From Candidatus Gottesmanbacteria bacterium (GTDB lineage Bacteria; Patescibacteriota; Microgenomatia; UBA10105; UBA927): a stretch of DNA of 64,000 nucleotides. Numbering within the stretch: position 1 is the first letter of the stretch; the number at the start of each line of letters is the position of its first letter. The notes under the pieces were generated by a model. The model had not been told where the DNA came from. It made no database searches and was given only the letters and a program-made list of their open reading frames with translations. Shown in pieces: positions 19,362 to 56,773 of the stretch. The stretch is from assembly GCA_963714095.1 (NCBI GenBank), contig OY970230.1, positions 831,907 through 895,906 of the forward strand. Direction: 5' to 3'. The position numbers were made by a program, and so were the translations under genes.

Positions 19362-20150
19362 ATGAGATTAAATGCGGTAAAATTGCTGGGAATATCAATT
19401 TCAAACGGTTCGCGAAAAAAAATCCTAGAGGAAATTCAGAAGTATTTATTTCAATCGGACAAAGAAGAGCAAAAACCGCTTAAAATATTGACTCCGAATA
19501 CCGAGCAACTCGTTTTCGCCCGAAAAAATCCTGAATTTTCCGGCATTTTGAATAGGGCCGATATATCGCTCCCGGATACTGTTGGAGTGGTGTGGGCAAG
19601 CAACATATTAACGAAAAATCCACTTAAGAAAGTGATTCCCGGCGTTGACTTTATGCAGGACCTCGTCGCGGCAGCAGCCGCGCGTCACGTCCCAGTAGGA
19701 CTTATAGGTGGTCGCAGCGGTTTGGCAGTCAGAACGCTTGACTGCTTACGTCAAAAGTATAAAAAATTATTGGATAGTTGGGCAGAAGACGGGCCAGAGA
19801 TACAAATGCCGTATCAAGCCAATAATACCTATATTTCCGGATTAGCGAAACGGATTATTGATACAAAAACAAAAATAGTTTTTGTCGCGTTCGGGCCGCC
19901 GAAACAAGAATATTTAATCGAAGACCTTGCGAAGGCGCTCGGGTCATACACTGTGGTATTTATGGCGGTCGGCGGTTCATTTGACATTATTTCCGGCCGC
20001 CTGAAACGCGCGCCGTTATGGATGCGTAATTTTGGTCTTGAATGGCTCTGGCGTCTTATCCTTGAACCTTGGCGCATGAACCGCCAGTTCGCGCTTGTCG
20101 AATTTGTGTGGCTAATCTTGCGCGCAAAAATCAGCAAACCCTCAGAATAA
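19362..20150 (+). CDS. WecB/TagA/CpsF family (GT26) glycosyltransferase.
   Basis: The family-typical N-terminus LLGISISNGSRKKILEEI and C-terminus LEWLWRLILEPWRMNRQ are present. The length is 262 aa. Confidence 0.75.
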   Translation: MRLNAVKLLGISISNGSRKKILEEIQKYLFQSDKEEQKPLKILTPNTEQLVFARKNPEFSGILNRADISLPDTVGVVWASNILTKNPLKKVIPGVDFMQDLVAAAAARHVPVGLIGGRSGLAVRTLDCLRQKYKKLLDSWAEDGPEIQMPYQANNTYISGLAKRIIDTKTKIVFVAFGPPKQEYLIEDLAKALGSYTVVFMAVGGSFDIISGRLKRAPLWMRNFGLEWLWRLILEPWRMNRQFALVEFVWLILRAKISKPSE

Positions 20151-20215
20151 TAGAATATCGTTACATCAACAGATAGCTCTTGTATTGCAACGTAGCAATT
20201 TAGTATACTTAGCAT

Positions 20216-21406: not shown

Positions 21407-21407
21407 T

Positions 21408-22565: not shown

Positions 22566-22673
22566 TATATTTTCTTGTTCCAACAACCCAAGTAACTTGG
22601 TCTAGCGCTCGTTAGTATAGACTGCTAAATTATTGCTTCTATAATTATTTTTCCGTTCGTGTATCATTAAAGT

Positions 22674-25283: not shown

Positions 25284-38449
<13,166 letters not shown>

Positions 38450-38453
<4 letters not shown>

Positions 38454-38900
38454 TCGGAAAATCCATTGACGGGACAGCGGCAGTGACGACACTACTTGTC
38501 ACCCCGACGCCGTCAATCCTCGGGGATACGGTGGTGACGCCGTCGGCAACACTAACGCCGACGCTTCAGCCGACTTTGACGCCAATACTTACGCCGACTC
38601 CGACGGCAAGTCCGAGCCCGACCCTGAATCCAACCACGGCACCCAGTGCCCATCCCGACACCAACACCGATACAAACAGTGACACCCACTCCTACGCCTG
38701 CAGCAAGTACGGTGACGGTACTGACGAATGATTTGGGATATGTGAATGTCCGCGACGCACCAGCGGAAACAGGGAATTTAGTGGGCCGGATTCCTTCTGG
38801 CAATACGGTACCGTATGATGATCAAGAATACGGGTGGTATCACGTGACGTACAATACTATTGTCGGGTGGATTTCAGGAACGTATGTGCAGGTCAATTAG
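38450..38900 (+). CDS. Thr/Pro-rich linker plus bacterial SH3 (SH3b) domain protein. A frameshift falls in the low-complexity linker.
   Basis: The ATG overlaps the fibre gene's stop (ATGA). The linker TPTPSILGDTVVTPSATLTPTLQPTLTPILTPTPTASPSPT is followed by a switch to frame 3 near 38650-38700. The SH3b core is GYVNVRDAPAETGNLVGRIPSGNTVPYDDQEYGWYHVTYNTIVGWISGTYV. Confidence 0.5.
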
Positions 38901-38919: not shown

Positions 38920-39649
38920 CTAAGAGCTCGTATTCTTGAGCCAGATCGTGTAATCCGCTCCGTCCACAACCCCGTCGCCGTTAAAGTCGCCGCTTGCCGG
39001 TCCGTTGAGAACGGTTTGTCCGAAGTGTGAAAGCCAGACATTGTAGTCCGTTTCATTCACAGACCCGTCACCGTTGGCATCGCCGGAAGGCGGAGTATTG
39101 GCAGTGCTGTAGTTTACCCGCAGAAATGTTGTCGTAGGATCAAGCTGTACGCCGGCATTGGTCATGCCCCCGTAAAACGTACTCTGTAAGTGTCACGTGA
39201 CGTCACTATATCGGGAGTAATTCCGCCAAGTACGCTCGGTTGGGTAAAGAGAATTTGCCAGCAGCCGACAGCGCCGGATTGTGCCGGAGGAGTGATTGCC
39301 GACGCTGATGCGATTGCCTGCGGATCGTCAGTCAAATAGATACAAGATTCACCCCCCGTCAGACTTGAGGGGTTGTTGCGACGGAGAGTGGAGTTCCGGT
39401 CATAAGCACCTCATCAGTCACCGTGCTGTTTTTGGGGATGGATGCAATTCCGGAAAAATTTATCGTAAATAATACTACATGACTCCCTGTGGAAAAAAGG
39501 CCGACATGTGAGTCTCCCATGGTATGGTTGCCGTACGGCAGATCATTGGTGTAACTGGCAAACTGGGAAACGGGAAGGTCGATGTAGGCAGCCTTAACCG
39601 GTGCAGCAATGAACAATACGGCCCCGAAAAGAAGCAGTACACGCTTCAT
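38920..39649 (-). CDS. Secreted protein with a C-terminal dockerin-type repeat pair, interrupted by two frame changes.
   Basis: A signal peptide MKRVLLLFGAVLFIAAPVKA is present. The middle segment is open in another frame (SCIYLTDDPQAIASASAITPPAQSGAVGCWQILFTQPSVLGG). The C-terminal GDANGDGSVNETDYNVW...GDFNGDGVVDGADYTIW is a pair of dockerin-like Ca-binding repeats. Confidence 0.5.
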
Positions 39650-39687: not shown

Positions 39688-41845
39688 ATGAAGAAATTTT
39701 TTCCGTGGATACTTGCCGGAATATTTTTCGTGGTAGGTGTTGCGACACTCAAAGATTACGGCATGAATTGGGATGAGCCGGCGCGGCTCCTGCGGGGTCA
39801 GGCGTTCCTCCGTTTTTTTTAACGGGGAGGGGGACGGCGAATCTGCCCGACCGGACGCCCCCGAACCTTATACGCCCGTATGAATTCGTGACCCGCTACA
39901 ATTTTTCAGCGTCCGAGCGGCAGACGATGGCGACATTGCCCCCGATGCCGCGTCCGCAGGCTGAATTTGCGGCCATCGTTACGAAATTTGGCCGCAGGTT
40001 TAGATTTTTACCAGCACGACGCGTGGTCCGCCTACTTTATGAAGTACGACCCGTTTGAAACCGGCCACCTGCCTTTGCCGGAACTGTCAGGGTCGATGAC
40101 GAAACCGCGTGTTATATCAGGCATGGGGTATTGCGGGCGATATCGAGAGAGCTATGGCGTCCCGTACGTGTTGCTTGCGGGAGCGGGAGTTTTTGTCGTT
40201 TCCGCTTTTGCAATTGACGCGACGGGATCGTGGTTTGCGGGACTGGTTGCCGGTCTTTCGCTGGCACTTTTTCCCGTATTTTTTGCCGAAGCGCATTTTA
40301 ATATGAAAGATCCGGCAGTTGCGGCGCTTTTTGCCGGATGCGTGTGGATGTTCTGGCGGTGGGTGCGTGAAAATAAACTCACCTATTTTTTCGGGTTTGT
40401 TGTATTTTTCGCGTTGTCGCTGGGCGTCAAATGGAATGCCGTATTTTTACCCTTTATTTTTGGTCCGTGGCTCTTGAGCATACGGAAAACCGCTGAATTT
40501 AGGCGTTGGTACCGGCCAAAAAAATCTCTTGTTGCTTTTTTGTGTGCCGCCGGCGCGTGTGTAATCTTTATGCTCGGTATCTGGCCTGTTTCGTGGGGAA
40601 GGCCACTTGTGGCTTTGTGGGACCTGGTTCAATATTACTGGGGGATCGGAACCGGTAGTAGCGGTGTCCAGCCGGCAGGTTTTATTTTTCCTCCCGTGGT
40701 AGGCGTCAACTTTTACCCATTTCTCTTATTTTTGGCACAGACGCCTGAAGTGTTGCTTTTTCTTTCGGCCGTAGGCTACGGTTGCGATTGTACGCGCTGC
40801 GGCGGGGAAAACCCTCCGTACGGGATATTTAGTTCTGATATGGTTTATAGTTCCTGTTATCCGGTATAGTTTCCCGTATACCCAGGCCTACGGCGGATGG
40901 CGGCAGATGATGGAAATAGTCCCGGCCATTGCGTTACTTTCCGGCATCGGCGCGGACTATCTGATGCGGAAAACACATGGAAAGATGAAGTACTTTATAG
41001 AAGGAATACTATTAATAGCTTCCATTATACTTATACGCTCTTTAATACGTTTACATCCGAATGAAAATACCTATTTTAATACATTTGTCGGCGGCATCAG
41101 CGGAGCGCAGTCGAAAAATCTCATCGACCCGTTTTTAACCGACGGCAACGTCTATAAACAAGGGGCACTGTGGCTCAATTCGTACGCTGAGAAAGATGCG
41201 CGGGTGGCCATTCTGGACGGCAGGACGTTTGCATTGTCGCCGCTCTACCTGCGGCCGGATATTTCCGTATCGCCGTTTCACTTCAGCGGGTTTGACCGGA
41301 AAGGGGAGTATATTTTCGTAACCCCCATCAATACCATCCACGGGACGGCGAATTTCAGTTACCGGTATGTCCGGGATTTTCTCACGCCGGTTCACGAAAT
41401 TACCGTCGGCAATGTGCCGATTTTGTTGATATATAAAAATGATGAGGCTCACCTGCGGACCGGAATGGCGCAGGAAACGGTTATACGTCCCGTGGCGCAA
41501 ACGTATTATTCAACCCGCGAAGGGGAGTATCTGGAACTGGATTTCCCCGAAGACATCCGGGTGACGAGAATTGATATTCTGCCGACGAATCACCTGTGTA
41601 ACCGGCAGGAGCAATTTTCGACGTACAACAATATTGTCAAGTTTATCCCGTCCTCACCCGGCAAACAATTCGATCCCGTTGATCACACCTACGCCACTGC
41701 GGAAAAACGTCTGACCGCAGACGGCACGTTGGAGTACCTGTATCCGGGTGAATTGGCCCGTTCTGTGAAGATTATTGCCACGACACCCTATTCATGTTTT
41801 ATCGGGGCCAAAGTGACGGCAGTGTGGGAGCTTGCCAATAAATGA
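39688..41845 (+). CDS. GT-C membrane glycosyltransferase (PMT/ArnT-like, GT39/GT83-type), interrupted by at least 3 frameshifts.
   Basis: The N-terminus MKKFFPWILAGIFFVVGVATLKDYGMNWDEPARLL carries the DE loop motif. A stop follows a T8 homopolymer at about 39820. The protein continues in ORFs 39967..40869 and 40907..41845 (TM helices plus a periplasmic C-terminal domain). Confidence 0.5.
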
Positions 41846-43488
41846 AAACGAAGCGCGTTCTCTGGATCGGTATTATTTCTTCAATTATATTTTCAGGGAT
41901 ATTCCTGCGGACGCTGTATCTGACTTTTGATAAACCGCTGCGTGCCGCGGATGACGAAGCGTATTATTATTTTTTATTTGATAACAACTTTACCAAGCTT
42001 GCGGAGGGAGACATCGGGCATCTATTTGATACTCGCATGTTTTATCCACTGAAGAATACGCTTGCCTTCGGCAACAGCGTCTTGGGTCCGAGCATCCTCG
42101 GGCTCCCCGTGTACATGGTAACCCGCAATGTCATCATATCGGCAAATGCAGTACGGATCGCGGATTTTTTGCTTTCCTTTTTCTTTCTGTATCTCGTTGC
42201 GTATTCGCTGACGGGGGACATATGGGGGGCATTTATCGCTGGGCTTATTTATACATACAATCCGTACATGATGTCGCGGTGGCATCAGGATCTTGTGGCA
42301 TTCCAGTGGGTGCCCCTGATTTTTTTGGCAACGGAAAAGCTCCTGAAACGTATACGGTGGCGCTGGACTATCGTTTTGGTAGCGGCTTTTCTTCTGCAGT
42401 TTATCACTTCTTTTTACTATTTTTTCTTTCTGGCGATTCTCTGGCCCGTGTATACCGTTATCCGGATGTGTCAGATAAAAGTTTCTTTAAGGAACTATAT
42501 GACGCCCGTTGTGTGGTTACCGGCAGTCGTACTCATCTTCTTTATGGGTGTGTATATCCGTCCGTACCTTGCGATGCAGAAAATGTACCATCTCGCGAGA
42601 GGTGCGGAAATTCAGACCTATGCCGCAGGCTTGACTGATTTTTTTCTGGCACCACCGGAAAATCTGACGTACGGGAAGTTCAACACGATGGCACACCCTT
42701 ACGAACATAGTTTATTCCCGGGAATTACTGTTTTTGTCTTTGTGATTGCCGGTTTCTGGCTTTTCCTGCGCAGGAAGTTTTCTGCTCGGGACAGGCCGCA
42801 CGTGGTGGCGTATATGACGATTCTGGTCCTTGCAGTGGTCTGTACGACAGGCCCGGTGTACGGGTTGTTGTACGGGTTGCCTGGAGGTGAAACGCTCCGC
42901 GTGCCGACGCGGTTTATGGTGATTGTTTTGTTTGCTTCGTCAATACTTGCCGCGTATGTGTGGAAATCAGTCGGAAAATTCCGGTTCCGTCGATTGCTGT
43001 TCATATTCGTCATCGCCGCTCTCTGTTTTGAGTACCGCTACGATTTCGGTCGACCCATGGCCGTTCCCCAACCCGTACAGCAGTTTTACCGGACGCTTAA
43101 CGGGCGTAAAGACGTCCATGTACTTTTGGAATTACCCATGGGGAACGGCTATTCCACGCAGAACCCTGTACTTGACCGTGACTTTATGGCAGATTCGAAA
43201 TATCTCCTCTTCGCCCTGTATCACAACAAAATACTCCTGAACGGATATAGCGGATTTATTCCGCCGGACTGGTTTCTTCTGGGACGCACGCTGGCGCTGG
43301 ATTTTCCCACGAAAGAAAAAATTATCCAGCTCGAGCATATCGGCGTTGACACGGTCGTTGTCCATCTTGACGAATATGCGGATGTCCGGATCGGCGCAAA
43401 AGTGCTTAGTGGGTTGCGTTCGATCGGGCTTACCGAAATCGGACACACGAAGGAAATCTTCGCGTTTCGCCTTACTCTTTCACTTTGA
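41842..43488 (+). CDS. Polytopic membrane protein, GT-C-like glycosyltransferase.
   Basis: The protein is 548 aa. A first-loop motif TFDKPLRAADDEAYYYF is present. Many TM helices are predicted. The ATG overlaps the upstream stop. Confidence 0.5.
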   Translation: MKTKRVLWIGIISSIIFSGIFLRTLYLTFDKPLRAADDEAYYYFLFDNNFTKLAEGDIGHLFDTRMFYPLKNTLAFGNSVLGPSILGLPVYMVTRNVIISANAVRIADFLLSFFFLYLVAYSLTGDIWGAFIAGLIYTYNPYMMSRWHQDLVAFQWVPLIFLATEKLLKRIRWRWTIVLVAAFLLQFITSFYYFFFLAILWPVYTVIRMCQIKVSLRNYMTPVVWLPAVVLIFFMGVYIRPYLAMQKMYHLARGAEIQTYAAGLTDFFLAPPENLTYGKFNTMAHPYEHSLFPGITVFVFVIAGFWLFLRRKFSARDRPHVVAYMTILVLAVVCTTGPVYGLLYGLPGGETLRVPTRFMVIVLFASSILAAYVWKSVGKFRFRRLLFIFVIAALCFEYRYDFGRPMAVPQPVQQFYRTLNGRKDVHVLLELPMGNGYSTQNPVLDRDFMADSKYLLFALYHNKILLNGYSGFIPPDWFLLGRTLALDFPTKEKIIQLEHIGVDTVVVHLDEYADVRIGAKVLSGLRSIGLTEIGHTKEIFAFRLTLSL

Positions 43489-44953
43489 CGAAATAGCTAT
43501 AAAGCGGATCCTGATACTTTCTCTCCCATTGGCCGCTTTTAACCAAAGCGTCTAAATACAGTGTAATGTCCGACGGGGTCGGCACAATAGCCCAGCTAAA
43601 ATGGTACTCATTGTCGTATTTGATAAATGCAATAGGTCCTTTGGGCATTGCGATCCAGTCGCCTTCCAGAACCGGCGGGGTTTTACCGTTTTCCTCCCAG
43701 GCGGCCATGCGTCCGTCAATGAATGTTTTTACCTGCGGAACCCGCCACGAGAGATACCCCCCGTAATCATAAATATGGAAACCATTGCCGCGGGGCGGAT
43801 CGGCGAGCATTATGGCGGTGATAAGCTCTGAGCAATAGAGCGTTTCGTTACAATAATCATTCCAGGAGTAGGTCAAAAGATGCGGGTTCGGCATCGAGAA
43901 ATACGTTTGGAATTTCGCCATGTCCCACGAAACCAATGCGATGAGCATAAGCGCGATTGTCCATTGGACGGCACGTTTCTGAAAAAACCGCCAATGGTAG
44001 AGCGGCAGATTTCGAGCCAAAAAATAGACCACGACGGCGCCCAGAACGATAACAAATCTGTTGGCGCTAAATGCCAGATACGTACTAACCACGACTACCG
44101 CCACAGCGGGGAATGCCCGTATTTTCTTGCGGTTTACAAGAACTGCGAGAGTAAACAGTACGATGATTCCGGTAATCAGTGCCACGAGGGGTAAATCCGT
44201 CAACGGCGCCCATTCGGAGATGCCCAGAAGATTGGTATTGCTGGTGTGTTTAAACGTTTCTTCGTACACCTGCAGCCCCCAGGGGTTTACAAGAGGGGTA
44301 AACCAGGAAGCCGCAAGAGCGAGTCCGTAGGTTTTATATTGATGAATCGGTATTTTTTGTATCCGTGAGAGTATGCCGCAGCAGATCCATTGAATGGAAA
44401 GGAGTATGAGTCCCAATGCAAATCCGCCGTGAAGATTTGCCCAGACCAGAAAAAAAACCGGCAAGAGATACATGACCCAGGCCGGTGTTTTGCGTCCGTC
44501 GGGGTCCAGTATCCGGTCGGATATGACGATAGATGCGGCCATAAAGATTGTTGAAATGGTCGCCGTGCGCATGCCGCCGCCCCACATGGGCCCGACGAGT
44601 GCGATAAATACTATTCCCAGAAACAGTAATTGTACAAGATTTAACCGTTTGGGTGGCCAGATGACGATACAAAATGTAAAGAGCGTACAGAGGCCCGCGG
44701 TCACGGAAAGTCCTAAAAATCCCAAATGGGTAAACAGCTGGTAGACGATAAGATCATATCCCCAAGATGCCTGCACCCATTTATACTGCGGCCAGACGAA
44801 GCTGATGATATTGTCCCGCAGCACGTGTCCGGTCTGAAAGAAATACTGTCCATACCGCAGGTGCCAGCCTAAATCAGGGTCGCGGGCCGGCTGTGTAACC
44901 AACAAAAGAAAAGCAATGATAAAAAAGATTTTTGCCAGGTTAGTGAATCGCAT
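43472..44953 (-). CDS. Polytopic membrane protein, putative GT-C-type glycosyltransferase.
   Basis: The protein is 493 aa. The N-terminal loop PARDPDLGWHLRYGQ carries a DxD motif. At least 10 hydrophobic helices are predicted. Confidence 0.45.
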   Translation of the reverse strand: MRFTNLAKIFFIIAFLLLVTQPARDPDLGWHLRYGQYFFQTGHVLRDNIISFVWPQYKWVQASWGYDLIVYQLFTHLGFLGLSVTAGLCTLFTFCIVIWPPKRLNLVQLLFLGIVFIALVGPMWGGGMRTATISTIFMAASIVISDRILDPDGRKTPAWVMYLLPVFFLVWANLHGGFALGLILLSIQWICCGILSRIQKIPIHQYKTYGLALAASWFTPLVNPWGLQVYEETFKHTSNTNLLGISEWAPLTDLPLVALITGIIVLFTLAVLVNRKKIRAFPAVAVVVVSTYLAFSANRFVIVLGAVVVYFLARNLPLYHWRFFQKRAVQWTIALMLIALVSWDMAKFQTYFSMPNPHLLTYSWNDYCNETLYCSELITAIMLADPPRGNGFHIYDYGGYLSWRVPQVKTFIDGRMAAWEENGKTPPVLEGDWIAMPKGPIAFIKYDNEYHFSWAIVPTPSDITLYLDALVKSGQWERKYQDPLYSYFVKVKE

Positions 44954-46907
44954 ATGTTATAAGATAACACGCCGCAATAATGAAAAACAGCGCGTGATAT
45001 CCTATTGCCATGGCGCTGTATTCGAGAAACCCACCAAGTACTGCGCCAAGAATATTTGATGACAGCGCCAGAACGGGCCGTGGGGTATTTTTAAACAGCT
45101 GGCTGAAGATCATGTTCGCAAAAAATACCGGAGAGAAATAAAGAACCGCCGCCAACACGTATCTGGCGGCTCCTGGGACCGAAAGAAAATTTTCCGTAGG
45201 TATCATTGCAGAAAGAAGCAAGCTTCCAAAGAGGAGTATGTAGAGAATCCCCGGCTTGATACGGACGTTCATGCTTATGATGTTGGCAATAAGAATTGAT
45301 GTGAGGATTGCTCCAAACACGAGAGAATTGACAAACCATGTCGCGCCGAACAGGAGGCTGAACGTGGTAAGGCTTTTGGTTTCCAACAGGAGAAATGCCG
45401 CGCCGAACAGGAAAAACTTTACGTTAAACCCGCGCTCTTTCTGGATATACATGCTGAGCGCCATAAGTATGACGGCAAGTGCCAGAAGTGTCCCGAGTAT
45501 GGTCAGATAGAAGGCGGGAATGCCCCGGTTCTGCACATACAGAAACGGCCAGTCGTCGGTTGCAGGTGTCGCGTCTCTGGTTTTTTCGTACCGCACGATC
45601 GGTGAATCCTTCTTAAGGTCCGCAAGTTTTGGCTCCGCCATGATGATCGCAGCCTGCGTTTGCTTGTCAAAAAGGTACACATACGGCGTGGTGCCGAACG
45701 AATGCATGGCCATTTGAGCGATTTTATCTACAAGCCACGGTTCACGGTAATAATTGTAAAACACCGCGAGTCCGTTGGGGGTGAGATGTTGGCTTGCTTC
45801 TTTCATCGCTTCTTCGGTAAACAAAAAACTTTCCAGCCGGATATTTGACGTTTGACTCGTGAGTACCAGTGAGTCTGTTAGTGCGAAAATGATGAGATCA
45901 TACTGCCGCTTGCTGTTTGCTAAAAAATTTCTCCCGTCGCCGACGGTCAGATGGACGCGCGGATCTTCGTACGGCTGATCGGGATGGTGCGCGACACCCA
46001 GCTGTGCCACGACGGGATCTATTTCAACGGCATCGATGCGTGCGAGAGACGGATCTTCTCCGAGGGCGGTAGCCACATCATTGCCGGTGCCGGATCCCAG
46101 AATGAGTATATTTTTGTACTCAGGATGATGTAATTCTTCATACGCGAGGCGATAAAATGGTTCCTTATCTAACGAATGTGCGGCGTATTGGTTGGGGACG
46201 GTATTGACGGAAACGCCGAAATTCATGAAAAATTCGTGGATGTCCACGCGGTAATACGGGGACCAGAGTGAGTCGCCTGTGGTCCCGAATACGAGAATAA
46301 TTGTGCAAACCAGCGGAAGTATGCCCAAGACTATCCATTTCCAGGAGGGTCAGGAATGTAACGGTTGTCCCTACAGCACCGATAATGATAAACCATATCC
46401 ATGCAGAGACGCCCAGAAACGAAAGGCCGGAAAAGATGATGATTGCCAGAAGCGATCCGGCAATGTCGATGGTGTAGGCGGTTATAGGAGGAAGTTACCC
46501 AAACACGCGCCCGAATTCCTGTGATATCATGGCAAAACACAGGGAAACCAGAAGGAAAATGAAGGGTAAAATTGTGGTGGGTTCCACATGGGGTACGGTT
46601 TGCGGGCTGATATCGGTGAAAAAAATAACGTTTGGGGAAGTGTTCTGAACATCGAGATTAAACGAGACTGTGAGCGTAATGAGAAGCAGTAGAAATAGGG
46701 GAAATATCTGTTGTATTTCGCCCGAATGCGGCTTTTCGTCCATAGCAGACCTAACCCTAATCCCAGGAACGCAGCAAGCAGCGTGATGTTGGCAAAAAAT
46801 CCCATGAGCCGGACGCATGAGGGGATGAAGCGGATGAGGGCAAGTTCCGTGAAGAGAATAAGAAAACTGAGTAAAAAGAGGCGGAGTCTGGTCATTTCAA
46901 TCATCAT
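44940..46907 (-). CDS. Membrane-bound spermidine-synthase-like (PABS fold) aminopropyltransferase-family protein, interrupted near 46330-46530.
   Basis: The PABS motifs are present: ILILGSGTGNDVATAL, IDAVEIDPVV, VHLTVGDGRNFL and YDLIIFALTDS. The N-terminal TM module (MMIEMTRLRLFLLSFLILFTELALIRF...) lies in ORF 46527..47147. A stop separates the two same-frame pieces. Confidence 0.5.
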
Positions 46908-46946
46908 ACTACCAAATTTGCAGTATGCGTGATACGGTATGTGTAA

Positions 46947-48368
46947 ATGGTGCCAAGGATAAAAAATATACTGCTGTTTTTGCTTGCGATTATTCCGTAT
47001 ATATATCTGACGAATAGGCTGTTTCTCCTTGAGCCTCCGGTCTGGCCGGATGAAGCAGTATTTACTGATGTAGCAAAAACGTTTATTAGAACCGGTCACA
47101 TAGCAACGCAGATCTATGGAGGCGCGATATATAATACTGCCGCACATTTCTATTTTTATCCGCCCGCGTATTTTCTTACACTCTCGGCCTGGATCCGGAT
47201 GTTCGGACCGGGTATTGAATCCGTCCGCCTGATGTCTTCTTTTATAGGATTACTGTCCCTGGTTCTTTTTTGGATTTATATCGTTCGACTGTTCCACTCG
47301 CGGACACTCGCGGTAGCGGGCACGGTAATGCTGAGTATTGATAGTTATTTCGGGCTGTCTTCGCGTACGGCCCGCATGGAAATAGTAGTATTTTTTCTCT
47401 TTATTTCCACGCTCATCGTGATTGATATCGCTTTTCAGCGGAAATCAGCCCTCTGGTATTTGGCCGGCGGCATACTTGCCTCATGTGCCGTGATGACTCA
47501 TCCATTGGGAATCATGGTCGTTGCACTTGCCGTTTTTGCCGTTATAGCCAGACACAGGAAAATCGATACGGATGTCTGTTGGGATCTTTTGCCTCCGGCG
47601 CTGGCTGCAGCGGGTTGGTTTATCTCGATGGGGAAAAATTTTCCGATGTTCATCTATCAGGTTGGTATAAATTTTGCATACAAAAATGCAGAGGTCCCTC
47701 ATATTTTTACCCTGTTCGGGCAGGGGATATTCTGGCAGATCTCTATGGTGTGCATCGGCCTCATTATCGCCATACAAACTCTCGTTGTTATTCAAAAAAG
47801 GAAATATTCTGACATATTCGTTTTGGGCGGTTTTGTAATCTCGGTTCTCTTTGTCTTATGGGGAAAGGTTTTTTGGTACACCATATATCCGGCGCCGTTT
47901 ATAGACCTCATGATTCTTGGTTTTTTTGCATGTCCTCCGAAACAAAACGTATACAGATACGGCGTGTTTTTGTTGTCTTTCTGTACAATCCTTGCACAGG
48001 CGGCCATCCTGTATATGACGCTGCAGTCATTTCAGGGGATGGACAACGGATATCACCTGTTTACCCGATCAATTCAGTCGTTCGTGCCCCGCGGCGGGCA
48101 TGTACTACTAGCATCCGTATGGGATCCGTATTTTGATCTTAAGAGGGATTCCGGATTGACACTCTATGAACTGTCAGAACTTCCGTTACCGGATTCGGAC
48201 ATTAAGCCCCTGTTGGATAATGCAGATGTCGTTATCTATACAAATATATTTTCTCCGTATGTTGCTTCCTATTTGAATACCTACAGAAAATCGACAATAC
48301 AGATACACTATGGATATTCAGCTACGGTGGTATTATTACTTCCCCGCGGAGAACGTTTTGCAAAATGA
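46947..48368 (+). CDS. GT-C membrane glycosyltransferase (PMT/ArnT-like).
   Basis: LLEPPVWPDEAVFTDVAKTF carries the DE motif in the first extracytoplasmic loop. The protein is polytopic and 473 aa. Confidence 0.6.
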   Translation: MVPRIKNILLFLLAIIPYIYLTNRLFLLEPPVWPDEAVFTDVAKTFIRTGHIATQIYGGAIYNTAAHFYFYPPAYFLTLSAWIRMFGPGIESVRLMSSFIGLLSLVLFWIYIVRLFHSRTLAVAGTVMLSIDSYFGLSSRTARMEIVVFFLFISTLIVIDIAFQRKSALWYLAGGILASCAVMTHPLGIMVVALAVFAVIARHRKIDTDVCWDLLPPALAAAGWFISMGKNFPMFIYQVGINFAYKNAEVPHIFTLFGQGIFWQISMVCIGLIIAIQTLVVIQKRKYSDIFVLGGFVISVLFVLWGKVFWYTIYPAPFIDLMILGFFACPPKQNVYRYGVFLLSFCTILAQAAILYMTLQSFQGMDNGYHLFTRSIQSFVPRGGHVLLASVWDPYFDLKRDSGLTLYELSELPLPDSDIKPLLDNADVVIYTNIFSPYVASYLNTYRKSTIQIHYGYSATVVLLLPRGERFAK

Positions 48369-48409
48369 CGCTGGTAAAATACGTTGTGTTTGCGGTATAT
48401 TGAGCATCA

Positions 48410-49042
48410 ATGCACTATTCACGGGACGATGCAATGATCCGTATCCGCAGGAACACGTGGATCCGGCGCAGGCGATTGGCGATGTTCGGGCTTAAAAAAA
48501 CGGACAGGATATTGGATCTGGGTTGCGGCGACGGGCTTGATATAGAAATACTTCGCAAAAAAGGCTGTAAAAAGATTACCGGTGTTGATATCCCCCCGAA
48601 ACTGCTTGCAGATGCCAAAAAAAGGAATCCCGGCGTACGTTTTATCCGTGCATCGGCGGAAAAATTACCGTTTAAGGATGCTTCGTTTGATACGGTATTC
48701 GTTGATTCCGTTCTCTATCATTTTGTCGGGAAGCCGGAGGCGTTTTCCGAGATTTGGCGCGTGCTGGTGCCCGGCGGCCGACTGTGCATAATCGATATGC
48801 ATAACTCGCGGGTACGGAAATTTTTTGATTGGCTCACGTTTTCACCTATACGCCGCATTATCCCGTATCTGGAAAAACGGCGGCGTGCATATACGGTTGA
48901 ACAGGCGGCAATTGAACGGTGGCACGCGCATGAAAAAGAGTTTCTTAAAAGCCTCGCGTCAGCGGGATTTAAGCAGGAATTGTTGCGTACGGACCTACTC
49001 AGTATTATCGGGAAGTACCGAAAGATGCAAGAATTTTTTTAA
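48410..49042 (+). CDS. Class I SAM-dependent methyltransferase.
   Basis: Motif I is ILDLGCGDGLDIEIL. The post-I acidic residue and motif II (VFVDSVLYHF) are present. Confidence 0.7.
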   Translation: MHYSRDDAMIRIRRNTWIRRRRLAMFGLKKTDRILDLGCGDGLDIEILRKKGCKKITGVDIPPKLLADAKKRNPGVRFIRASAEKLPFKDASFDTVFVDSVLYHFVGKPEAFSEIWRVLVPGGRLCIIDMHNSRVRKFFDWLTFSPIRRIIPYLEKRRRAYTVEQAAIERWHAHEKEFLKSLASAGFKQELLRTDLLSIIGKYRKMQEFF

Positions 49043-50087
49043 CGCGCTTCGCACGCGTCCGGAAGAATATTTTTCTCTGAATTTAATTTTTGCTTTCCGG
49101 CCGAATCGTTGTGCCAGACGCCGATTTTTCAACAGTTTTTCAATGGCCGCTGCCAGCGCCTGCGGATTTGCCGGCGCAACAAGGATTCCCGATACGCCAC
49201 CCACGACGTCTTCCGGTATGCCGTCAATATCGCTTGCGATAATCGGAAGACCCGCTGCCATAGCCTCCAGAACCGCGATTGATCCGCTGCCTTCTTCCAG
49301 CGAGGGCAAAATAAAACAATAGGCTTTTTTAAAAAACGGCTGTGTATCGTCCGCATAACCGGTAAACGTGATATTTGAGAGCCCTAGTGTTTGCGCAAAC
49401 CGTTTATTCTTTTTCAGTTTATGGCCGCCGCCCACGATGACGGCTTTATAACGTATATTTTTGTCGTTCAAAATTTTGTACGCGTCAAGAAGATAGGGGA
49501 TACCCTTGCGGGCATCCTGCCTGCAGATAGTCAGGAGTTGTGGTGTTTCAGATTGCATACGGCATTTGATAAAACTTTTTCCGATCCAGTTTGAATTCAT
49601 TTTGTAAAATTTTTTCCGTTGAACGGTAGTGGGTGATGATGCGGTCGCTTTTTGTAAGAATAGAGCGTTCTAAAAGTGAAAATATCGGAGTGTGGTACTC
49701 GTGTTTGATCGTTGTAAAATAATCCGCAAACAACTGTACTGACGGTTGGTTTTTTTTCACGAGCAGTCCTGCTAATGTCCATGGGCCAATGCCCCAAATG
49801 ATTTCTGCGTGATCCAATTTATTTATCGCCTGCGCAATGAGAACAGATGCGGGTACAAGCGCCGCCATTTCGCGGCCGGCGATGATTCGGATAAACGGCA
49901 CCTTAACGACATGAATTATTCCGATGGGTGTTTTTGTGACAGAACTCGTCTGTCCGACGCAAAAAATATGTACGTCGCTTCCAAGAGCGACTAATTGTCG
50001 AGCAAGGGCAGCCCCGTAGTGTGCGTACCCGCTTTTTCCGGTTTTCGGATGCTTGCCGCTTATAAGAGAGATCGTAGGGTGGTACAT
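48995..50087 (-). CDS. Glycosyltransferase family 4, split by a frameshift near 49550-49600.
   Basis: The N-terminal GT-B domain lies in ORF 49548..50135. The C-terminal domain (ILPSLEEGSGSIAVLEAMAAGLPIIASD) lies in ORF 48995..49600, in another frame. Confidence 0.55.
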
Positions 50088-51157
50088 ACGTATGCGATAT
50101 CGGCGCCAGTCAGTGCGACGCCGGAGGGCAAGCACAGGCCGTGCGAACTCAAATGTTCTGCTACCGGATACCGTTCACCCGTAAATAACCCGATTTTTTT
50201 AAACGCAGGCTGCCGGTGAAGCGGGATAAAAAATTCACGTGTTTCGATACCGTTCTTCGCTAATTTTTTCTCGACAGAGTCTCTCGTTTGTTTACTATTG
50301 AACAAAATTCCGTACTGCCAGTAAACATTGGTATATCCCGGAAGTTCGGAGGGAAGCCGTAGACCGTTCACGCCAGAGAGGAGCCGCGAATATTTTTGTG
50401 CAATAGTGCGTTTTTTTGCTATGAAATTCTTTGCGTTTTCCGTTTGTGCAAGTCCTAAAGCCGCTTGTACGTTGCTTAACCGGTATGCATAGGCAATTTC
50501 CTGATGCAAAAAATGCTTGTTGGGAGTGCGGGCAAGGTTGCGAAGGCTCCGCATGCGGTCGGCAAGGCGTTTATTATTCGTCGTTACCATGCCGCCTTCG
50601 CCGGTTGTTATAATCTTATTGCCGTAGAATGAAAAGCAGCCCATATCGCCGAAAGAACCTGCTAATTTATTACGGATTTTTGCTCCGTGAGCCTCTGCGG
50701 CATCCTCGATAACGGCGAGTTTATATTTTTTGGCCAATTTCCGTACCGCCGCCATATCCGCCGGGTGCCCGTGAAGGTGGACGGGGATAATGGCACGGGT
50801 TTTTTTGGTAATCTTTTCTTCTATTTTGGATACATTGATATTTCCGGTATTTTTTTCGCTGTCTACAAGTATTGGTTTTGCGCCAAGATACACAATGGGC
50901 AGCGCCGTCGCAATCATCGTAAGAGTGGGTACGATGATTTCGTCGCCGGGACCGATATGCAGGGCCGCCAGTGCCAGATGGATGGCACCGGTGCCGCTTG
51001 AACAGGCGACCGCATATTTCGTGCCGATGAGTCGGGCAAATGCGTTTTCAAACCGCCGGATATACGAACCTTTGGATGACACCCAACCGCTTGTAAGACA
51101 ATCCAGGACGTATTTTTTTTCGTTCCGTCCGATAAGAGGTTCTGATACGGGAATCAT
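50060..51157 (-). CDS. DegT/DnrJ/EryC1/StrS family PLP-dependent sugar aminotransferase (ArnB-like).
   Basis: MIPVSEPLIGRNEKKYVLDCLTSGWVSS...YAVACSSGTGAIHLAL is the typical DegT N-terminus. The length is 365 aa. Confidence 0.8.
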   Translation of the reverse strand: MIPVSEPLIGRNEKKYVLDCLTSGWVSSKGSYIRRFENAFARLIGTKYAVACSSGTGAIHLALAALHIGPGDEIIVPTLTMIATALPIVYLGAKPILVDSEKNTGNINVSKIEEKITKKTRAIIPVHLHGHPADMAAVRKLAKKYKLAVIEDAAEAHGAKIRNKLAGSFGDMGCFSFYGNKIITTGEGGMVTTNNKRLADRMRSLRNLARTPNKHFLHQEIAYAYRLSNVQAALGLAQTENAKNFIAKKRTIAQKYSRLLSGVNGLRLPSELPGYTNVYWQYGILFNSKQTRDSVEKKLAKNGIETREFFIPLHRQPAFKKIGLFTGERYPVAEHLSSHGLCLPSGVALTGADIAYVCTTLRSLL

Positions 51158-51220
51158 GGCGCCATCATACCGCGGGGCGCTCCTCTTGTCGAGATTCGAA
51201 AGAATAGTATACTAGGACAC

Positions 51221-52645
51221 GTGAAGATAAAAAAATATTTGCCGTGGATTATTATCGGTATCGGCATTCTCCTGCGGCTCCGGCAATACTTTTTTAACCG
51301 GTCGCTATGGCTGGATGAAGCGCTATTGGCACGCAATATTATTGAACGATCGTTTGTGGGGCTCCTTCAGCCGCTCGGATATGAGCAAAATGCCCCGGTC
51401 GGTTTTTTACTCTTATCAAAGCTGGCGACGGTTATCGGCGGGCCGACGTCGTTGGCTCTGCGGTTTTTCCCGCTTGTATTCGGCATCATTTCATTGTTCT
51501 TTTTTTACCGCGTCGCGAGGCATTTTTTGCGCTTGCCCGGCACGCTTATTGCTCTCACTTTTTTTTCACTGGCGACCCCTATGGTGTATTACTCGACGGA
51601 GTTTAAACAATACATGGGGGATGTGCTTGCCGCACTCATCCTGTGGTATTTTTTTCTTGTCGCACCGCCGAAAAGTAAGAGCCGGCTCGCCCTGTTGGGG
51701 GCAGGTATATTGTGGTTTTCGCATGCGAGCGTGTTTATCCTTGCAGGTTTGGGCATGGGAGATATTTCGCTTTGGACCTATGCCGTTCCCATATGGCTTG
51801 CGAGTTTCGGCATCGATTATCTTTTGTTCCTTCGGTATAGCCTTTCCCTGACTATGGTCAATGTTTGGCAGGGGCATTTTTTATTATTTCCATGGTTGCG
51901 GGGGAAAACGGATGTGTATGTTAAATCAATAGGTACCGTCTTCGGATTTTTTGTGGATGTAGATGCCGCGTGGGTGCACGCATGCCTGTTGGTCGCCGGA
52001 TATAGTTCCCTTGCAAGAAAAAGCATCAAAAATATCAGCGGTTTTATTCTGCCCATTGTTTTTGTACTCATTGCGTCCGGTTTTGAGAAGTACCCCTTTG
52101 TCCCGCGGCTTCTCCTCTTCTTTGCGCCGTCTCTCTATATCGCAATCGGGGCAGGCGCGGATCTTTTGATAGCATGCGGTCGAAGGATAGCGCATAAGGC
52201 AGGAGCAATGATTGCCGTTTGTGTTCTTTTACCGCTCCTTTTCTGGGGTACGGTACCGTATGCCGCAGCGTCATTCGTGACGCCGATAAAAGTAGAAGAG
52301 CTCGAACAGGTGATGAGCTATCTTCACGCGCATTATCAGAAAGGCGACATCATTTATCTCTATTATGCGGCGGAATCACCGTTCCGGTTTTATGCCCCGA
52401 AGTTCGGCCTCGACCGGGTGCCCGTCGTGGTCGGCGTGTCCTCACGGGATGACCCGGTGAAATATCAGCAGGATGCGGCGAAACTGAAAGGGAATCCCCG
52501 GGTATGGGTGATATTTTCCCACATTTTTCAGCAGGAGTTTGTCGGGGAAGATCAGTACATTGTCAGGTTTCTGGATTATATCGGGAGCCGTCTGGATTAT
52601 TATCCGCAGGTCGGCGCATCATTGTATCTGTATGATTTAAGATAA
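51221..52645 (+). CDS. GT-C membrane glycosyltransferase (PMT/ArnT-like).
   Basis: NRSLWLDEALLARNIIE carries the DE loop motif. The protein is polytopic and 474 aa. Confidence 0.6.
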   Translation: MKIKKYLPWIIIGIGILLRLRQYFFNRSLWLDEALLARNIIERSFVGLLQPLGYEQNAPVGFLLLSKLATVIGGPTSLALRFFPLVFGIISLFFFYRVARHFLRLPGTLIALTFFSLATPMVYYSTEFKQYMGDVLAALILWYFFLVAPPKSKSRLALLGAGILWFSHASVFILAGLGMGDISLWTYAVPIWLASFGIDYLLFLRYSLSLTMVNVWQGHFLLFPWLRGKTDVYVKSIGTVFGFFVDVDAAWVHACLLVAGYSSLARKSIKNISGFILPIVFVLIASGFEKYPFVPRLLLFFAPSLYIAIGAGADLLIACGRRIAHKAGAMIAVCVLLPLLFWGTVPYAAASFVTPIKVEELEQVMSYLHAHYQKGDIIYLYYAAESPFRFYAPKFGLDRVPVVVGVSSRDDPVKYQQDAAKLKGNPRVWVIFSHIFQQEFVGEDQYIVRFLDYIGSRLDYYPQVGASLYLYDLR

Positions 52646-52730
52646 ACGTAAAGTTTCCGTCATACTTCCTGCAAAAAATGAGGCAGAAGGGTTGGCCACC
52701 GCCCGTATTATTTTGGGGGAACAATAACAA

Positions 52731-53349
52731 TTACTTCAACTTTCCCGACCCGCGGAAGAGAAGCGAGATAAGGATAAGGTCATAAAAAATCCGGAAATAT
52801 TTTACAATCCCGAATTTGGATTGCCCGTACTTCCTTGGGCGGTGCGCGACCGGGACTTCAACAATTTTTAGATGAAGTTGGCGGGCAAGGAGTAATGAAT
52901 AGCGTAATAATGATCCTTCTTTCGGAAGCCGGTCAAGAACGTCTTTCCGGTAAACCTTCATCGGGCTTGAGAAATCGTTGAATTTATATATAAAATTAGC
53001 CAGACGCGTCAGCACTATTTTATACTGGGGATCATGACGGCGCATCCGATATCCCGAAACAATATCGTACCCTTCGTCCAGTTTTTTTAATAATTTAGGA
53101 AGCTCCCGCGGGTCGTCCTGTAAGTCTGAATCTATCGTGATGATAATAGATCCCTTTGCCCGTTCGATACCGGTCCGGAGAGCCTCCCATTTCCCGAAAT
53201 GGTCAGTGTATCCCGACGCGTCGTCTACGGCAACAATTTCATATTTTTTGCCGGCAAATGTGTGCTCGATTTCAGTGAATAACTGCGGCAGGGACGCGTC
53301 TTCGTCCCTCACGGGGAGGATAATGGAATAAACAATATTGCAATTCATG
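52731..53349 (-). CDS. GT2 polyprenyl-phosphate sugar transferase (ArnC/DPM1-like).
   Basis: The start is taken at MNCNIVYSIILPVRDE. AVDDASGYTD and ITIDSDLQDDP are the DxD regions. Confidence 0.7.
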
Positions 53350-54797: not shown

Positions 54798-55649
54798 ATG
54801 AAAAAGTATATCCGTCTCCTCAGGCTTCAGGATCAATATATACCCGCGTTTGCCGCCATCTCTGCAGGGGTGTACCTTTCTTCACGAAGCCTCAGTATCC
54901 TCTGGTGGGCGATAGCGGGGACATTTTTATCATTCACCGCATTTATTATTAACGAAATGACGGATCAGCAGGATACGGATAAATATAGTTGGAACCCAGT
55001 CCACTCGCTTTATCGCGAGAAGTGGAATATGAATATCGTCTGGACCATGTTTTTCGTTTTTTCCGTTGCCGGACTTATCATAAGTTATCTTGTTGGATTG
55101 TTCATATGGGGACTGGCGATATACCTTATCGGCATTTTGTATTCCCTTAAACCTATTCGGCTCAAAGGGAGAATTGTGTTTGATGTCGCGGCACAACTTT
55201 TGGTTTGGTGGATTTTGCCGTTTTTAGCGCCGGTATGGACTGCGGGTGACCACGTACGGGGCGTATGGTTTACGGCGATTATGGGCTTTATTATTTGGTT
55301 TGCGTTCTACCCATACCAGATTTCAGATTTACCTGCGGATCGAAAAGCCGGCCTTCGCAATACGCATGTCGTCCTGGGAGTACAAAAAAGTCTTCAACTC
55401 GGGTGTATCTTAGGTGTAGTTGGAAGCATCCTCTACATTTGGTTCGGACTGGGCCGATCATTCCCATCAACACTACCGCTTATGGGCATTGCGATGATGG
55501 AATTGTATTTCTATAGTTGTTGGATGCGCGCCGGATCTGAAACTGCGTCGCTCGCGTTGATGCGGAGAGACATACCGGCATTTAAAATTATCGGTCAATT
55601 TCTTGTCCCATACATTCTTCTCGTCTGGTTGGGGATTATCCGCTTGTAG
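54798..55649 (+). CDS. UbiA-family prenyltransferase.
   Basis: The start is MKKYIRLL. The first Asp-rich motif is NEMTDQQDTDKY and the second is YQISDLPADRKAG. There are 8-9 TM helices. Confidence 0.7.
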   Translation: MKKYIRLLRLQDQYIPAFAAISAGVYLSSRSLSILWWAIAGTFLSFTAFIINEMTDQQDTDKYSWNPVHSLYREKWNMNIVWTMFFVFSVAGLIISYLVGLFIWGLAIYLIGILYSLKPIRLKGRIVFDVAAQLLVWWILPFLAPVWTAGDHVRGVWFTAIMGFIIWFAFYPYQISDLPADRKAGLRNTHVVLGVQKSLQLGCILGVVGSILYIWFGLGRSFPSTLPLMGIAMMELYFYSCWMRAGSETASLALMRRDIPAFKIIGQFLVPYILLVWLGIIRL

Positions 55650-56326: not shown

Positions 56327-56701
56327 TTATTTTTTTCTCAATAATTTTCCAAGCAATGAAAGATTAGCAGGTACTTCACTCGGATCCATGCCACGGATAA
56401 GGTGACCCATATGACGTGCAGTTTCTTGTTGGTTTGGTGTCTTTAAGGCTATTTCTTCAGATAAGATTCCGCGTATATGTCGCAATGCTTCTTCCGGGTC
56501 TGGAAAAATTGCATCACTGAATATTTTGCCCCGGAATACCTCATCCCTCAGCCGGCGAAGTTCTTCAACCGGAAGTTCTTCGAGCGGTATACCTTCGAAT
56601 TGCCCCTCAACATGCTCGAGAATTAAACGTTGCGTGGTGGGACTGAGCCCCTGAAATCCGGGGGTTTTTTGGTTTTCCTGCTTTTCTTTGAGCACGTTCA
56701 T
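56327..56701 (-). CDS. Hypothetical protein.
   Basis: ORF of 124 aa. Confidence 0.4.
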   Translation of the reverse strand: MNVLKEKQENQKTPGFQGLSPTTQRLILEHVEGQFEGIPLEELPVEELRRLRDEVFRGKIFSDAIFPDPEEALRHIRGILSEEIALKTPNQQETARHMGHLIRGMDPSEVPANLSLLGKLLRKK

Positions 56702-56773
56702 AAAAAAGTGCCGGTATGGGTCAATACGAGGAAATTATATCAGAAAGCAACGATAAATGTGTATAATAACCTC

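Follow-up and report, generated by a model that had tools for sequence, protein, structure and literature searches.

Putative surface-glycosylation island with five divergent GT-C proteins beside a giant fibre gene in Candidatus Gottesmanbacteria

Introduction

In streptococci, the Pgf and GtrB/PgtC2 systems use a GT2 to make an undecaprenyl-phosphate sugar, which YfhO-type GT-C glycosyltransferases transfer to Ser/Thr-rich regions of surface proteins (PMC12041528; PMC5856776). The Pgf parts are the GT2 PgfS, PgfE and the YfhO-type PgfM1/PgfM2, and their genes lie beside the adhesin genes cnm/cnaB/cbpA (PMC12041528; PMC5856776). The GT39 enzyme Cbes_1864 of Caldicellulosiruptor bescii glycosylates Thr/Pro-rich linkers of secreted proteins (PMC6151902), and in Actinobacteria Ppm1/Pmt O-mannosylation relies on a GT39/PMT-type GT-C which glycosylates secreted proteins (PMC11727336). 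Here we describe a gene island of ~14 kb in a 64-kb stretch of DNA from a small-genome groundwater bacterium of Candidatus Gottesmanbacteria (Microgenomates, candidate phyla radiation; contig OY970230.1 of assembly GCA_963714095.1, positions 831,907 to 895,906; hereafter the window), in which five very divergent membrane GT-Cs and a set of sugar-donor enzymes are encoded beside a giant fibre gene.

Patescibacterial genomes measure ~1 Mb, and these bacteria are believed to be attached to their hosts. The ~14 kb of glycosylation genes and the ~12 kb of a fibre ending in a lectin and an SH3b domain together make up more than 2% of this genome. If sugars go onto the fibre or other surface proteins, the locus likely belongs to the attachment and recognition machinery of a lineage not yet cultured and offers testable enzyme-substrate pairs, and if the acceptor is a wall polymer it shows how these organisms build an envelope glycan. 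Literature searches on GT-C or collagen-like proteins in Patescibacteria or the candidate phyla radiation returned nothing relevant in the library consulted.

The Island and Its Conservation

Gene calls in the window were made from open reading frame (ORF) listings, translations, and Pfam and NCBIfam scans. Every gene named as part of the island in an earlier note on this DNA was found at or within a few bases of the place given for it (Table 1). We read the region as a surface-glycosylation locus at the outer face of the cytoplasmic membrane, a general module for which the fibre would be a probable major but not exclusive substrate, and we regard this reading as evenly poised. It is framed as general envelope or surface-protein glycosylation because the core of the island is common in these Patescibacteria. 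Gene content, folds, conserved acidic motifs, and synteny can be read directly, and from these we infer the donor sugars, lipid carrier, and acceptors. Nucleotide sugars would be modified in the cytoplasm by the DegT aminotransferase and possibly by the S-adenosylmethionine (SAM)-dependent methyltransferase, a two-gene GT4 would build or extend a lipid-linked glycan, and the short GT2 would load a sugar, probably an amino sugar, onto polyprenyl phosphate. The loaded lipid would be flipped by a flippase encoded outside the window, and the five GT-Cs, here called GTC1, GTC2, MP3, GTC4, and GTC5, would move the sugars from the lipid carrier to extracytoplasmic acceptors. On the fibre, these acceptor sites may lie in the Thr-rich collagen stalk and above all in the conserved Pro/Thr linker. 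On this reading, the clade has added GT-Cs to a common core beside a giant membrane-anchored fibre.

The clustering of these genes is not due to chance, since the same gene set recurs in related species. A genome-collection scan with an MP3 profile gave 80 loci, mostly from Microgenomates (Gottesman-, Davies-, Chisholm-, Levy-, Woese-, and Amesbacteria), other phyla contributing a few, and the closest relatives found in this way share 42-56% identity. Among these, a homologue of the non-collagen C-terminal module of the fibre lies 1-7 kb from MP3 in L006, L008, L010, and L011, with a weak match plus a collagen-like ORF in L009, and GTC1 is adjacent in L006, L009, and L010. Two further species (L085/L088 and L086) were found through GTC5 and GTC1 homologues; they retain nearly all of the island and have the fibre directly upstream of GTC1. 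The gene order in L085/L088 is fibre, GTC1, GTC2-like, MP3, SpeE, methyltransferase, GT-C, GT4, DegT, GTC5, and GT2, with a variant of it in L086. Overall, a fibre homologue was placed 1-7 kb from MP3 or GTC1 in L006, L008, L010, L011, L086, L088, L093-L097, L099, and L108. The earlier note had proposed checking related genomes for co-occurrence of the island with the fibre, and among close kin this expectation held, a fibre homologue lying beside the island in all the closest relatives with enough flanking sequence (~14 loci). Order, orientation, and intervening genes (beta-lactamase-like, GDSL lipase, dockerin-like) vary among the fibre-linked loci, and the persistence of fibre adjacency despite these changes argues that the linkage is under selection.

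A metagenome scan with a GTC1-family profile gave a further 80 loci, in which partners were scored within ±10 kb and 28 loci were well flanked (at least 4 kb on both sides). A methyltransferase was found near the GTC1-family gene in 55/80, a GT2 in 45/80 (often convergent and directly downstream), a GT4 in 42/80, and DegT in 34/80. At least two of these four partners were present in 27 of the well-flanked loci and at least three in 23. GTC1 is the gene most constantly beside the fibre gene: at each of the five best GTC1 matches the fibre gene lies directly upstream, and the fibre upstream of GTC1 in L093 includes 1446 aa of GXY. A core DegT-GT4-methyltransferase-GT-C-GT2 module is therefore common in these Patescibacteria, and fibre adjacency is confined to the nearest clade.

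The Fibre Gene

The fibre consists, in order, of an N-terminal transmembrane (TM) anchor, ~8 kb of G-x-T collagen-like repeat, a beta-rich module, an H-type lectin (H_lectin 36.5 bits), a Pro/Thr linker, and an SH3b domain (SH3_3 41.5 bits). The earlier note had described it as extremely Thr-rich, and its composition bears this out (20% Thr; 224 of 356 Gly-led triplets are G-x-T). What had been taken as a separate SH3b protein is in fact the C-terminus of the fibre itself, as seen from the domain scan and from the assembly L004, in which collagen repeat, beta-rich module, H-lectin, Pro/Thr linker, and SH3b form one intact ORF of 1976 aa. This ORF starts inside the repeat, and the N-terminal anchor is read from the window alone. 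The true length of the fibre is uncertain, the frame being repeatedly broken in the window and the repeat being collapsed or broken by short-read assemblies.

Fibre homologues in Daviesbacteria (L006 14617-17556) and Chisholmbacteria (L010 18308-21430) have other stalk repeats ("VLGNVNIG" and "GGIDISTGS") and keep the beta-rich module, H-lectin region, Pro/Thr/Ser linker, and SH3b. With the stalk swapped and the C-terminal module the same, the fibre stalk is modular and exchangeable. In these relatives, island linkage follows the non-collagen module and the Pro/Thr linker and not the GXT repeat. A phage tail-fibre origin was considered and dropped, the C-terminal module of the fibre having no relatives in a viral contig collection.

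The Thr-rich GXT collagen-like repeat of BclA from the Bacillus exosporium carries O-glycans. Nucleotide-sugar-dependent enzymes attach these sugars in the cytoplasm of the mother cell, and GT-Cs outside the membrane are not known to take part. The analogy with BclA drawn in the earlier note is thus useful in that such repeats can carry sugars, but it says nothing for a GT-C mechanism here.

Five GT-C Proteins From Old Families

All five proteins are GT-Cs by Pfam, profile comparison, or high-confidence models, with three GT39/PMT_2-like members (GTC1, GTC4, GTC5), one YfhO/DUF6311-like member (GTC2), and one that is STT3/AglB-like by fold (MP3). Each has 6-8 strong hydrophobic segments (a lower bound; at least eight TM segments in GTC2) followed by a soluble C-terminal region, as in the GT-C superfamily. 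The models give 12-13 helices for MP3 and for a GTC1 orthologue, and similarity to solved GT-C structures was found. GTC4, with just four close homologues in a word-indexed search, exceeds the Pfam gathering thresholds of PMT_2 (PF13231, 40.9 against 26.1 bits) and PMT (PF02366, 28.8 against 22.7 bits). GTC1 and GTC5 fall below the gathering threshold of PF13231/PF02366, at 20.9 and 21.0 bits, and many of their homologues carry these domains. GTC1 homologues bear a GT39 annotation, and among at least 281 GTC5 homologues about half carry PF13231 (PMT_2), with some named "Ara4N transferase-like". GTC2 is a borderline match to YfhO (PF09586) at 28.1 bits against a cut-off of 28.5 (E 9e-7, profile positions 96-383 of 835), and its 576-aa orthologue in L085 has a precomputed DUF6311 assignment, with no match in our own domain scan of that protein. 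Single-sequence phmmer searches of the PDB with GTC4, MP3, and GTC2 returned nothing relevant, showing no identity to characterized enzymes by direct search.

An acidic motif in the first loop, the signature by which the earlier note had recognized these enzymes, is present and conserved within each of the five families. The family counts are D32 69/71 and E33 71/71 for GTC5, D35-E36 8/8 for GTC4, D29 46/46 for GTC1, D37-D38 3/3 for GTC2, and D27 61/61 with D25 in at least 90% for MP3. The same note had called the five proteins paralogues, and while GT-C identity stands, recent paralogy does not: pairwise BLASTP and phmmer comparisons among the five gave no significant similarity, and they are linked by profile-profile comparison only (GTC4-GTC5 95.6%, GTC1-GTC4 91.4%, GTC1-GTC2 75.4% with E 2.4e-5, and MP3-GTC5 64%). 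On these comparisons the five GT-Cs are members of at least three old families that were assembled together, and not the product of a recent expansion. A sixth GT-C had been proposed at the start of the window. This protein is polytopic, but its GT-C identity is unconfirmed, as its sole match is a sub-threshold one to GT-C_AftD (11.3 bits, E 0.078), and it has no significant similarity to the other five. A look-up through the lipoprotein gene nearby, aimed at the complete protein, gave no match.

MP3 and Its Membrane Partner

MP3 belongs to a large family abundant in Patescibacteria, with 7140 representative clusters at E ≤ 1e-3, nearly all of ~480 aa. It has no sequence match in Pfam, NCBIfam, or the PDB, a Pfam scan of 61 relatives assigned no family (one member matched EpsG), and PDB searches with a family profile and a C-terminal-domain profile found no match. 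Its predicted structure (predicted local distance difference test score 92.4, predicted template modelling score 0.91) is unambiguously GT-C. The top 15 Foldseek matches of this model are all STT3/AglB, and its nearest structural neighbors are the oligosaccharyltransferase (OST) catalytic subunits STT3/AglB/PglB, C-terminal domain included. A hidden Markov model of the family gave one collinear local match to Campylobacter lari PglB (12.0 bits; profile 252-423 on PglB residues 325-496), a score above those of all 1000 locally shuffled versions of PglB (maximum 8.0) and yet a weak one, equal to E ~0.6 PDB-wide. This HMMER alignment places the near-invariant R299 on R375, YDYGG on WWDYG, and KTFIDGRM on KTLIDGGK, and an hhalign comparison (E 0.0033, probability just 9.7%) places E247 on E319. 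The WWDYG motif itself is not found in the MP3 family, which has Y-x-(W/Y)-G-G with a varying residue (D/N/S/E/R/G) at the Asp position, and the N-terminal DxD/acidic motif aligns inconsistently with PglB D56. MP3 as a canonical OST was rejected, there being no Pfam STT3 match and no conserved WWDYG Asp.

Next to MP3, and overlapping it by 14 nt, lies the gene for a polytopic protein with ~11 TM segments, in which a spermidine-synthase fold (Spermine_synth 46-47 bits) sits between ~6 and ~5 TM helices. Spermidine synthases have a GGGDG(G) loop, whose Asp selects decarboxylated SAM. The glycine loop here is G-S-G-T-G-N-D in the window and G-(S/A/P)-G-T-G-(N/A)-D in all six orthologues compared, and all scores against NCBIfam equivalogs are far below cut-off (52.7 against 260). 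A true aminopropyltransferase was rejected on the atypical loop and the equivalog scores. The earlier note's membrane aminopropyltransferase is therefore real as a polytopic spermidine-synthase fold, while aminopropyl transfer is doubtful because GSGTGND replaces GGGDGG. The protein could be a methyl/alkyl transferase acting on the lipid-linked donor or the glycan, or a transporter-like partner. Its gene is paired, often overlapping, with MP3 or a TPR-bearing MP3 relative in L005, L007, L008, L010, L019, L085, and L086. The pair is kept even in L019, a distant metagenome-assembled genome, and in L095 a SpeE homologue lies near GTC1, with MP3 not detected there.

In relatives, TPR-bearing membrane proteins of 600-670 aa stand beside MP3 or SpeE, and these proteins are distantly homologous to MP3. 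MP3-family genes most commonly adjoin the gene for a secreted repeat protein of ~430 aa that is rich in N/T/D and has no Pfam family (24/80 loci). As a side observation, this protein (e.g., L043 5117-6358) has repeats such as "TGDASANVNVSN" and is a candidate substrate class for MP3 GT-Cs. The OST-like folds of MP3, its TPR-bearing relatives, and the secreted N/T-rich repeat neighbors are hints of protein acceptors. One speculative and rather unlikely proposal is that the MP3 family comprises compact STT3/AglB/PglB relatives which work with an obligately paired polytopic SpeE-fold partner and glycosylate secreted proteins at an acceptor site that is novel or independent of a sequon, the proteins being the fibre here and N/T-rich repeat proteins at other loci. 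If true, this would be a previously unrecognized bacterial protein-glycosylation system in the candidate phyla radiation. A very large family that has an OST-like fold and a conserved membrane partner and is covered by neither Pfam nor NCBIfam models is also a tractable target for new glycosyltransferase activity.

Donor Enzymes and the Arn Analogy

The DegT protein scores 367 bits with the LegC family, 276 with PseC, and 224 with ArnB in NCBIfam, all below equivalog cut-offs (ArnB 631). For the GT2 the best NCBIfam models are ArnC (98 bits, cut-off 529) and streptococcal PgfS (52 bits). The GT2 keeps a DSDLQDD motif and is missing the C-terminal TM helices, and its alignment shows a 22-aa internal deletion common to L086. 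Such GT2s, 205-237 aa long and lacking C-terminal TM helices, are typical of this clade. The two GT4 ORFs meet precisely at the linker between the GT-B domains; the ATG of the downstream ORF lies inside ...ccgtATGcaatcTGA and overlaps the upstream stop. The same split is found in L001, L004, and a second species, L086/L087 (L086 7112-8186), and a single ORF occurs in L006 (4819-6036, 406 aa) and L085 (347 aa). The GT4 looks like an Alg13/Alg14-style two-subunit GT-B and not a pseudogene.

The earlier note had seen in DegT, GT2, and GT-C the logic of the Arn pathway. The layout of a lipid-linked donor followed by a GT-C is plausible, and the order DegT-GTC5-GT2 is kept in L085 and L086. Membership of the Arn pathway did not hold up: no GT-C in the island has an ArnT equivalog match in NCBIfam, the DegT and GT2 scores fall short as given above, ArnA, ArnD, and ArnE/F domains are absent among the island ORFs, and the whole window contains no small polytopic GtrA/SMR-type ORF. 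With equivalog thresholds not reached and the Arn genes and a flippase missing from the window, the analogy is one of layout only. The trio as a widely conserved unit was also rejected, as neither DegT nor GT2 was found beside distant GTC5 homologues of non-CPR genomes.

Several genes recur in related loci, namely Wzx-like/flippase-like genes, an FdtA-like cupin, a Gfo/Idh/MocA oxidoreductase, and a UDP-sugar dehydrogenase. They were identified by visual inspection and not with profiles, and they fit amino-sugar donors. In the Daviesbacteria relative, a sugar C-methyltransferase (Methyltransf_14/13; L006 3481-4815) lies between DegT and GT4, which points to a methylated amino-deoxy sugar donor there.

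Weighing the Possible Acceptors

Several observations weigh against a surface-glycosylation locus with the fibre as a major substrate, beginning with the fact that all it says beyond gene content is what we infer. The fibre is found near GTC1-family genes in just 7/80 metagenome loci and 4 of the 28 well-flanked ones, and in L006 and L010 the collagen (G-x-y) repeat is absent from the fibre homologue. No GtrA-, SMR-, or Wzx-like flippase ORF, no phosphoglycosyltransferase, and no sugar 4,6-dehydratase for DegT were found in the window, and the GT2 is unusually short with its internal deletion. Fold comparison for GTC1 was run on the model of a 58%-identical orthologue, and this model is at least as similar to ALG12/ArnT, enzymes with lipid-linked acceptors, as it is to PMT, with a C-terminal domain that seems to resemble a carbohydrate-binding module (discoidin/CBM32-like). 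The earlier note had taken the GT-Cs as PMT-type enzymes acting on protein; the fold matches do not distinguish protein-acting from lipid- or glycan-acting enzymes. Five different GT-Cs could equally build a polymer, and a TagA/WecG and GT4 locus lies 15 kb upstream (19.3-22.6 kb).

The alternative that survives best, possible though on the unlikely side, is that the acceptor is not a protein and that the GT-Cs work stepwise from polyprenyl-phosphate sugars to build or decorate a wall glycopolymer or lipoglycan (teichoic-acid-like, a secondary wall polymer, or arabinan-like). The fibre would then be adjacent since surface genes cluster, or its SH3b/H-lectin end would bind the polymer. This is consistent with a core module that is widespread without the fibre, with several unrelated GT-C families at one locus in the manner of multi-step extracytoplasmic glycan assembly, with the modeled likeness of the GTC1 orthologue to ALG12/ArnT and its CBM32/discoidin-like domain, and with the WecG/TagA and GT4 genes upstream and the Wzx-/flippase-like genes of related loci. 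YfhO-family members glycosylate teichoic acids in Bacillus and Listeria (PMC12041528). However, in all close relatives open to judgment, at 42-58% protein identity, the fibre has stayed adjacent despite rearrangement. MP3 has protein-acting OSTs as its nearest folds, it has TPR-bearing relatives, and genes of its family often neighbor secreted repeat proteins, and among the island genes there was no polymerase, ligase, or LCP-type attachment gene.

An improbable alternative, close to the proposal of the earlier note, is a dedicated Arn-like machine that O-glycosylates the GXT repeats of the fibre and a few other Thr/Pro-linker proteins. The Thr-richness of the fibre and its position directly upstream of GTC1 in the closest relatives, L093 included, would suit such a machine, as would the precedent of the Streptococcus mutans Pgf cluster, which is encoded beside the adhesins it modifies. 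Against it stand the many loci with the core module and no fibre, fibres without collagen repeat in L006 and L010, the low equivalog scores and missing ArnA/ArnD/ArnE/F, and distant GTC5 homologues without DegT/GT2 partners. As 27 of the 28 well-flanked loci have partners but just 4 have the fibre, the core module is not dedicated to the fibre. What remains of the dedicated island is fibre adjacency in the closest relatives, while the frequent occurrence of the core without the fibre is in part the outcome that the earlier note had counted against its own claim.

It is hardly credible that the island is decaying into pseudogenes in a reduced genome, as the frameshifts in GTC1, the SpeE-like gene, and the fibre, the GT4 in two ORFs, and the GT2 of just 205 aa might suggest, and this has been largely refuted: GTC1, the SpeE-like gene, and the C-terminal 1976 aa of the fibre are intact in L001/L004 at >99% identity, the GT4 split, which a second species shares, sits at an interdomain linker where the stop and start codons overlap, short GT2s are normal in the clade, and the catalytic acidic motifs of the GT-Cs are conserved.

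Frameshifts and Assembly Quality

Three further assemblies of the same or a near-identical population (L001, L003, and L004) were found by exact-protein look-up. L001 is 99.83% identical to the window over 21 kb, and the L001/L004 population is >99% identical. The frameshift that the earlier note reported in GTC1 is present in the window, where several 1-2 bp indels occur, but is peculiar to this assembly, the gene being an intact ORF of 717 aa in two others. Likewise, the SpeE-like gene is an intact 652-aa ORF in L001 and L004 with window frameshifts at 46352 and 46707-46711, and the dockerin-like gene is split by indels in the window and intact in L001 and/or L004. The indels in the window are scattered and of 1-2 bp, about one per 300-500 bp across 36.0-40.8 kb, plus the two SpeE-like sites. 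Since the ORFs are intact in L001/L004, the frameshifts are an assembly or strain artifact and not decay. Some indels compensate within 20-45 nt (40102 with 40144-5; 40525 with 40544), suggesting consensus noise or mixed strains in the source assembly. In L003 (ERZ25039479, 17600-21647) the island ends after the GT4 C-terminal domain, and HTH_17 and dCache genes then replace DegT-GTC5-GT2. These genes resemble the window gene upstream of the fibre (25284-27230) and reflect either a strain-level rearrangement or a chimeric contig.

Neighboring Genes

Table 1. Coordinates of the island genes, the fibre gene, and associated features in the 64-kb window.
Feature	Position	Strand	Description
Polytopic protein	1-1115	-	N-terminal 371 aa, runs off the window; sixth GT-C candidate, unconfirmed
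Fibre gene	27257-38900	+	Upstream of the island; ~11.6 kb
Secreted dockerin-like protein	38920-39649	-	Between fibre and GTC1; Dockerin_1 28 bits; 242 aa in L004
GTC1	39688-41845	+	GT39/PMT_2-like GT-C, 717 aa when intact; C-terminal discoidin/CBM32-like beta-sandwich (predicted)
GTC2	41842-43488	+	YfhO/DUF6311-like polytopic GT-C candidate, 548 aa
MP3	43472-44953	-	GT-C; ~480-aa family without Pfam/NCBIfam model
SpeE-like polytopic protein	44940-46904	-	Spermidine-synthase fold, 652 aa when intact
GTC4	46947-48368	+	PMT/PMT_2 (GT39-type) GT-C, 473 aa
Class I SAM-dependent methyltransferase	48434-49042	+	Methyltransf_11/UbiE-like; Methyltransf_11 88 bits
GT4 C-terminal domain ORF	48995-49558	-	Glycos_transf_1, 125 bits, 187 aa
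GT4 N-terminal domain ORF	49548-50087	-	Glyco_transf_4, 179 aa
DegT/DnrJ/EryC1 sugar aminotransferase	50060-51157	-	Pyridoxal phosphate (PLP)-dependent; Pfam 392.6 bits; LegC/PseC-like
GTC5	51221-52645	+	PMT_2/ArnT-like GT-C, between DegT and GT2
Short GT2	52731-53348	-	205 aa; GtrB/ArnC/DPM1-like; Glycos_transf_2 61 bits; putative polyprenyl-phosphate sugar synthase
UbiA-family prenyltransferase	54798-55649	+	UbiA 55 bits; NCBIfam prenyltransferase matches weak

To the right of the island lie a ribulose-phosphate-epimerase-like gene, UbiA, DeoC, a PPAT-DUF359 fusion, and a GalT-like gene. The earlier note had counted UbiA into the island, and the gene is present but shows no conservation with it, not being adjacent to the island in L085 or L086. 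In the fusion (56630-57751, +), a cytidylyltransferase-like (PPAT-type) domain is joined to DUF359, possibly as a bifunctional enzyme of late coenzyme A biosynthesis. The position of the dockerin-like gene is not conserved either, none being found between the fibre and GTC1 in L086 and L088. A second glycan-related locus (19362-24104, +) contains a WecG/TagA-family transferase, two GT4s, and a GT5 starch/glycogen-synthase-like gene, and a sortase gene (3100-4566, -) adjoins a DUF11 surface-protein gene, which fits an envelope of Gram-positive type to which proteins are covalently attached.

Comparison With Known Systems

The Arn (PmrHFIJKLM) pathway resembles the island in combining an aminotransferase (ArnB/DegT), a GT2 synthase (ArnC), and a GT-C (ArnT), with the trio adjacent here and in two relatives. 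The Arn acceptor is lipid A, however, and this acceptor is not expected here because the envelope, judged by the sortase and DUF11 genes, would be of Gram-positive type. Compared with the OSTs STT3/AglB/PglB (GT66), which are 590-870 aa in length, MP3 is short at ~480 aa, and unlike OST loci it has no phosphoglycosyltransferase or flippase nearby.

The likeness to PMT and Cbes_1864 lies in GTC4, which passes both the PMT and PMT_2 models, and in the Pro/Thr linker kept by the fibre and its homologues. It differs in the extra discoidin/CBM32-like domain predicted for GTC1 and in having no directly detectable identity to the characterized enzymes. As for the donor, the linked DegT hints at an amino sugar and not at mannose. 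With Pgf, the island shares a short GT2 (with ArnC and PgfS as best matches), a YfhO-like GT-C, and an adjacent Thr-rich fibre as putative substrate. Adjacency to the fibre is conserved in ~14 related loci, but the core module usually occurs without the fibre. Unlike Pgf, the island encodes five GT-Cs of at least three families, DegT, a methyltransferase, a split GT4, and a SpeE-fold protein, has no epimerase, and belongs to a Patescibacterial host. Overall, the nearest functional precedents, by analogy, are Pgf, GtrB/PgtC2, the Caldicellulosiruptor GT39, and the actinobacterial PMT.

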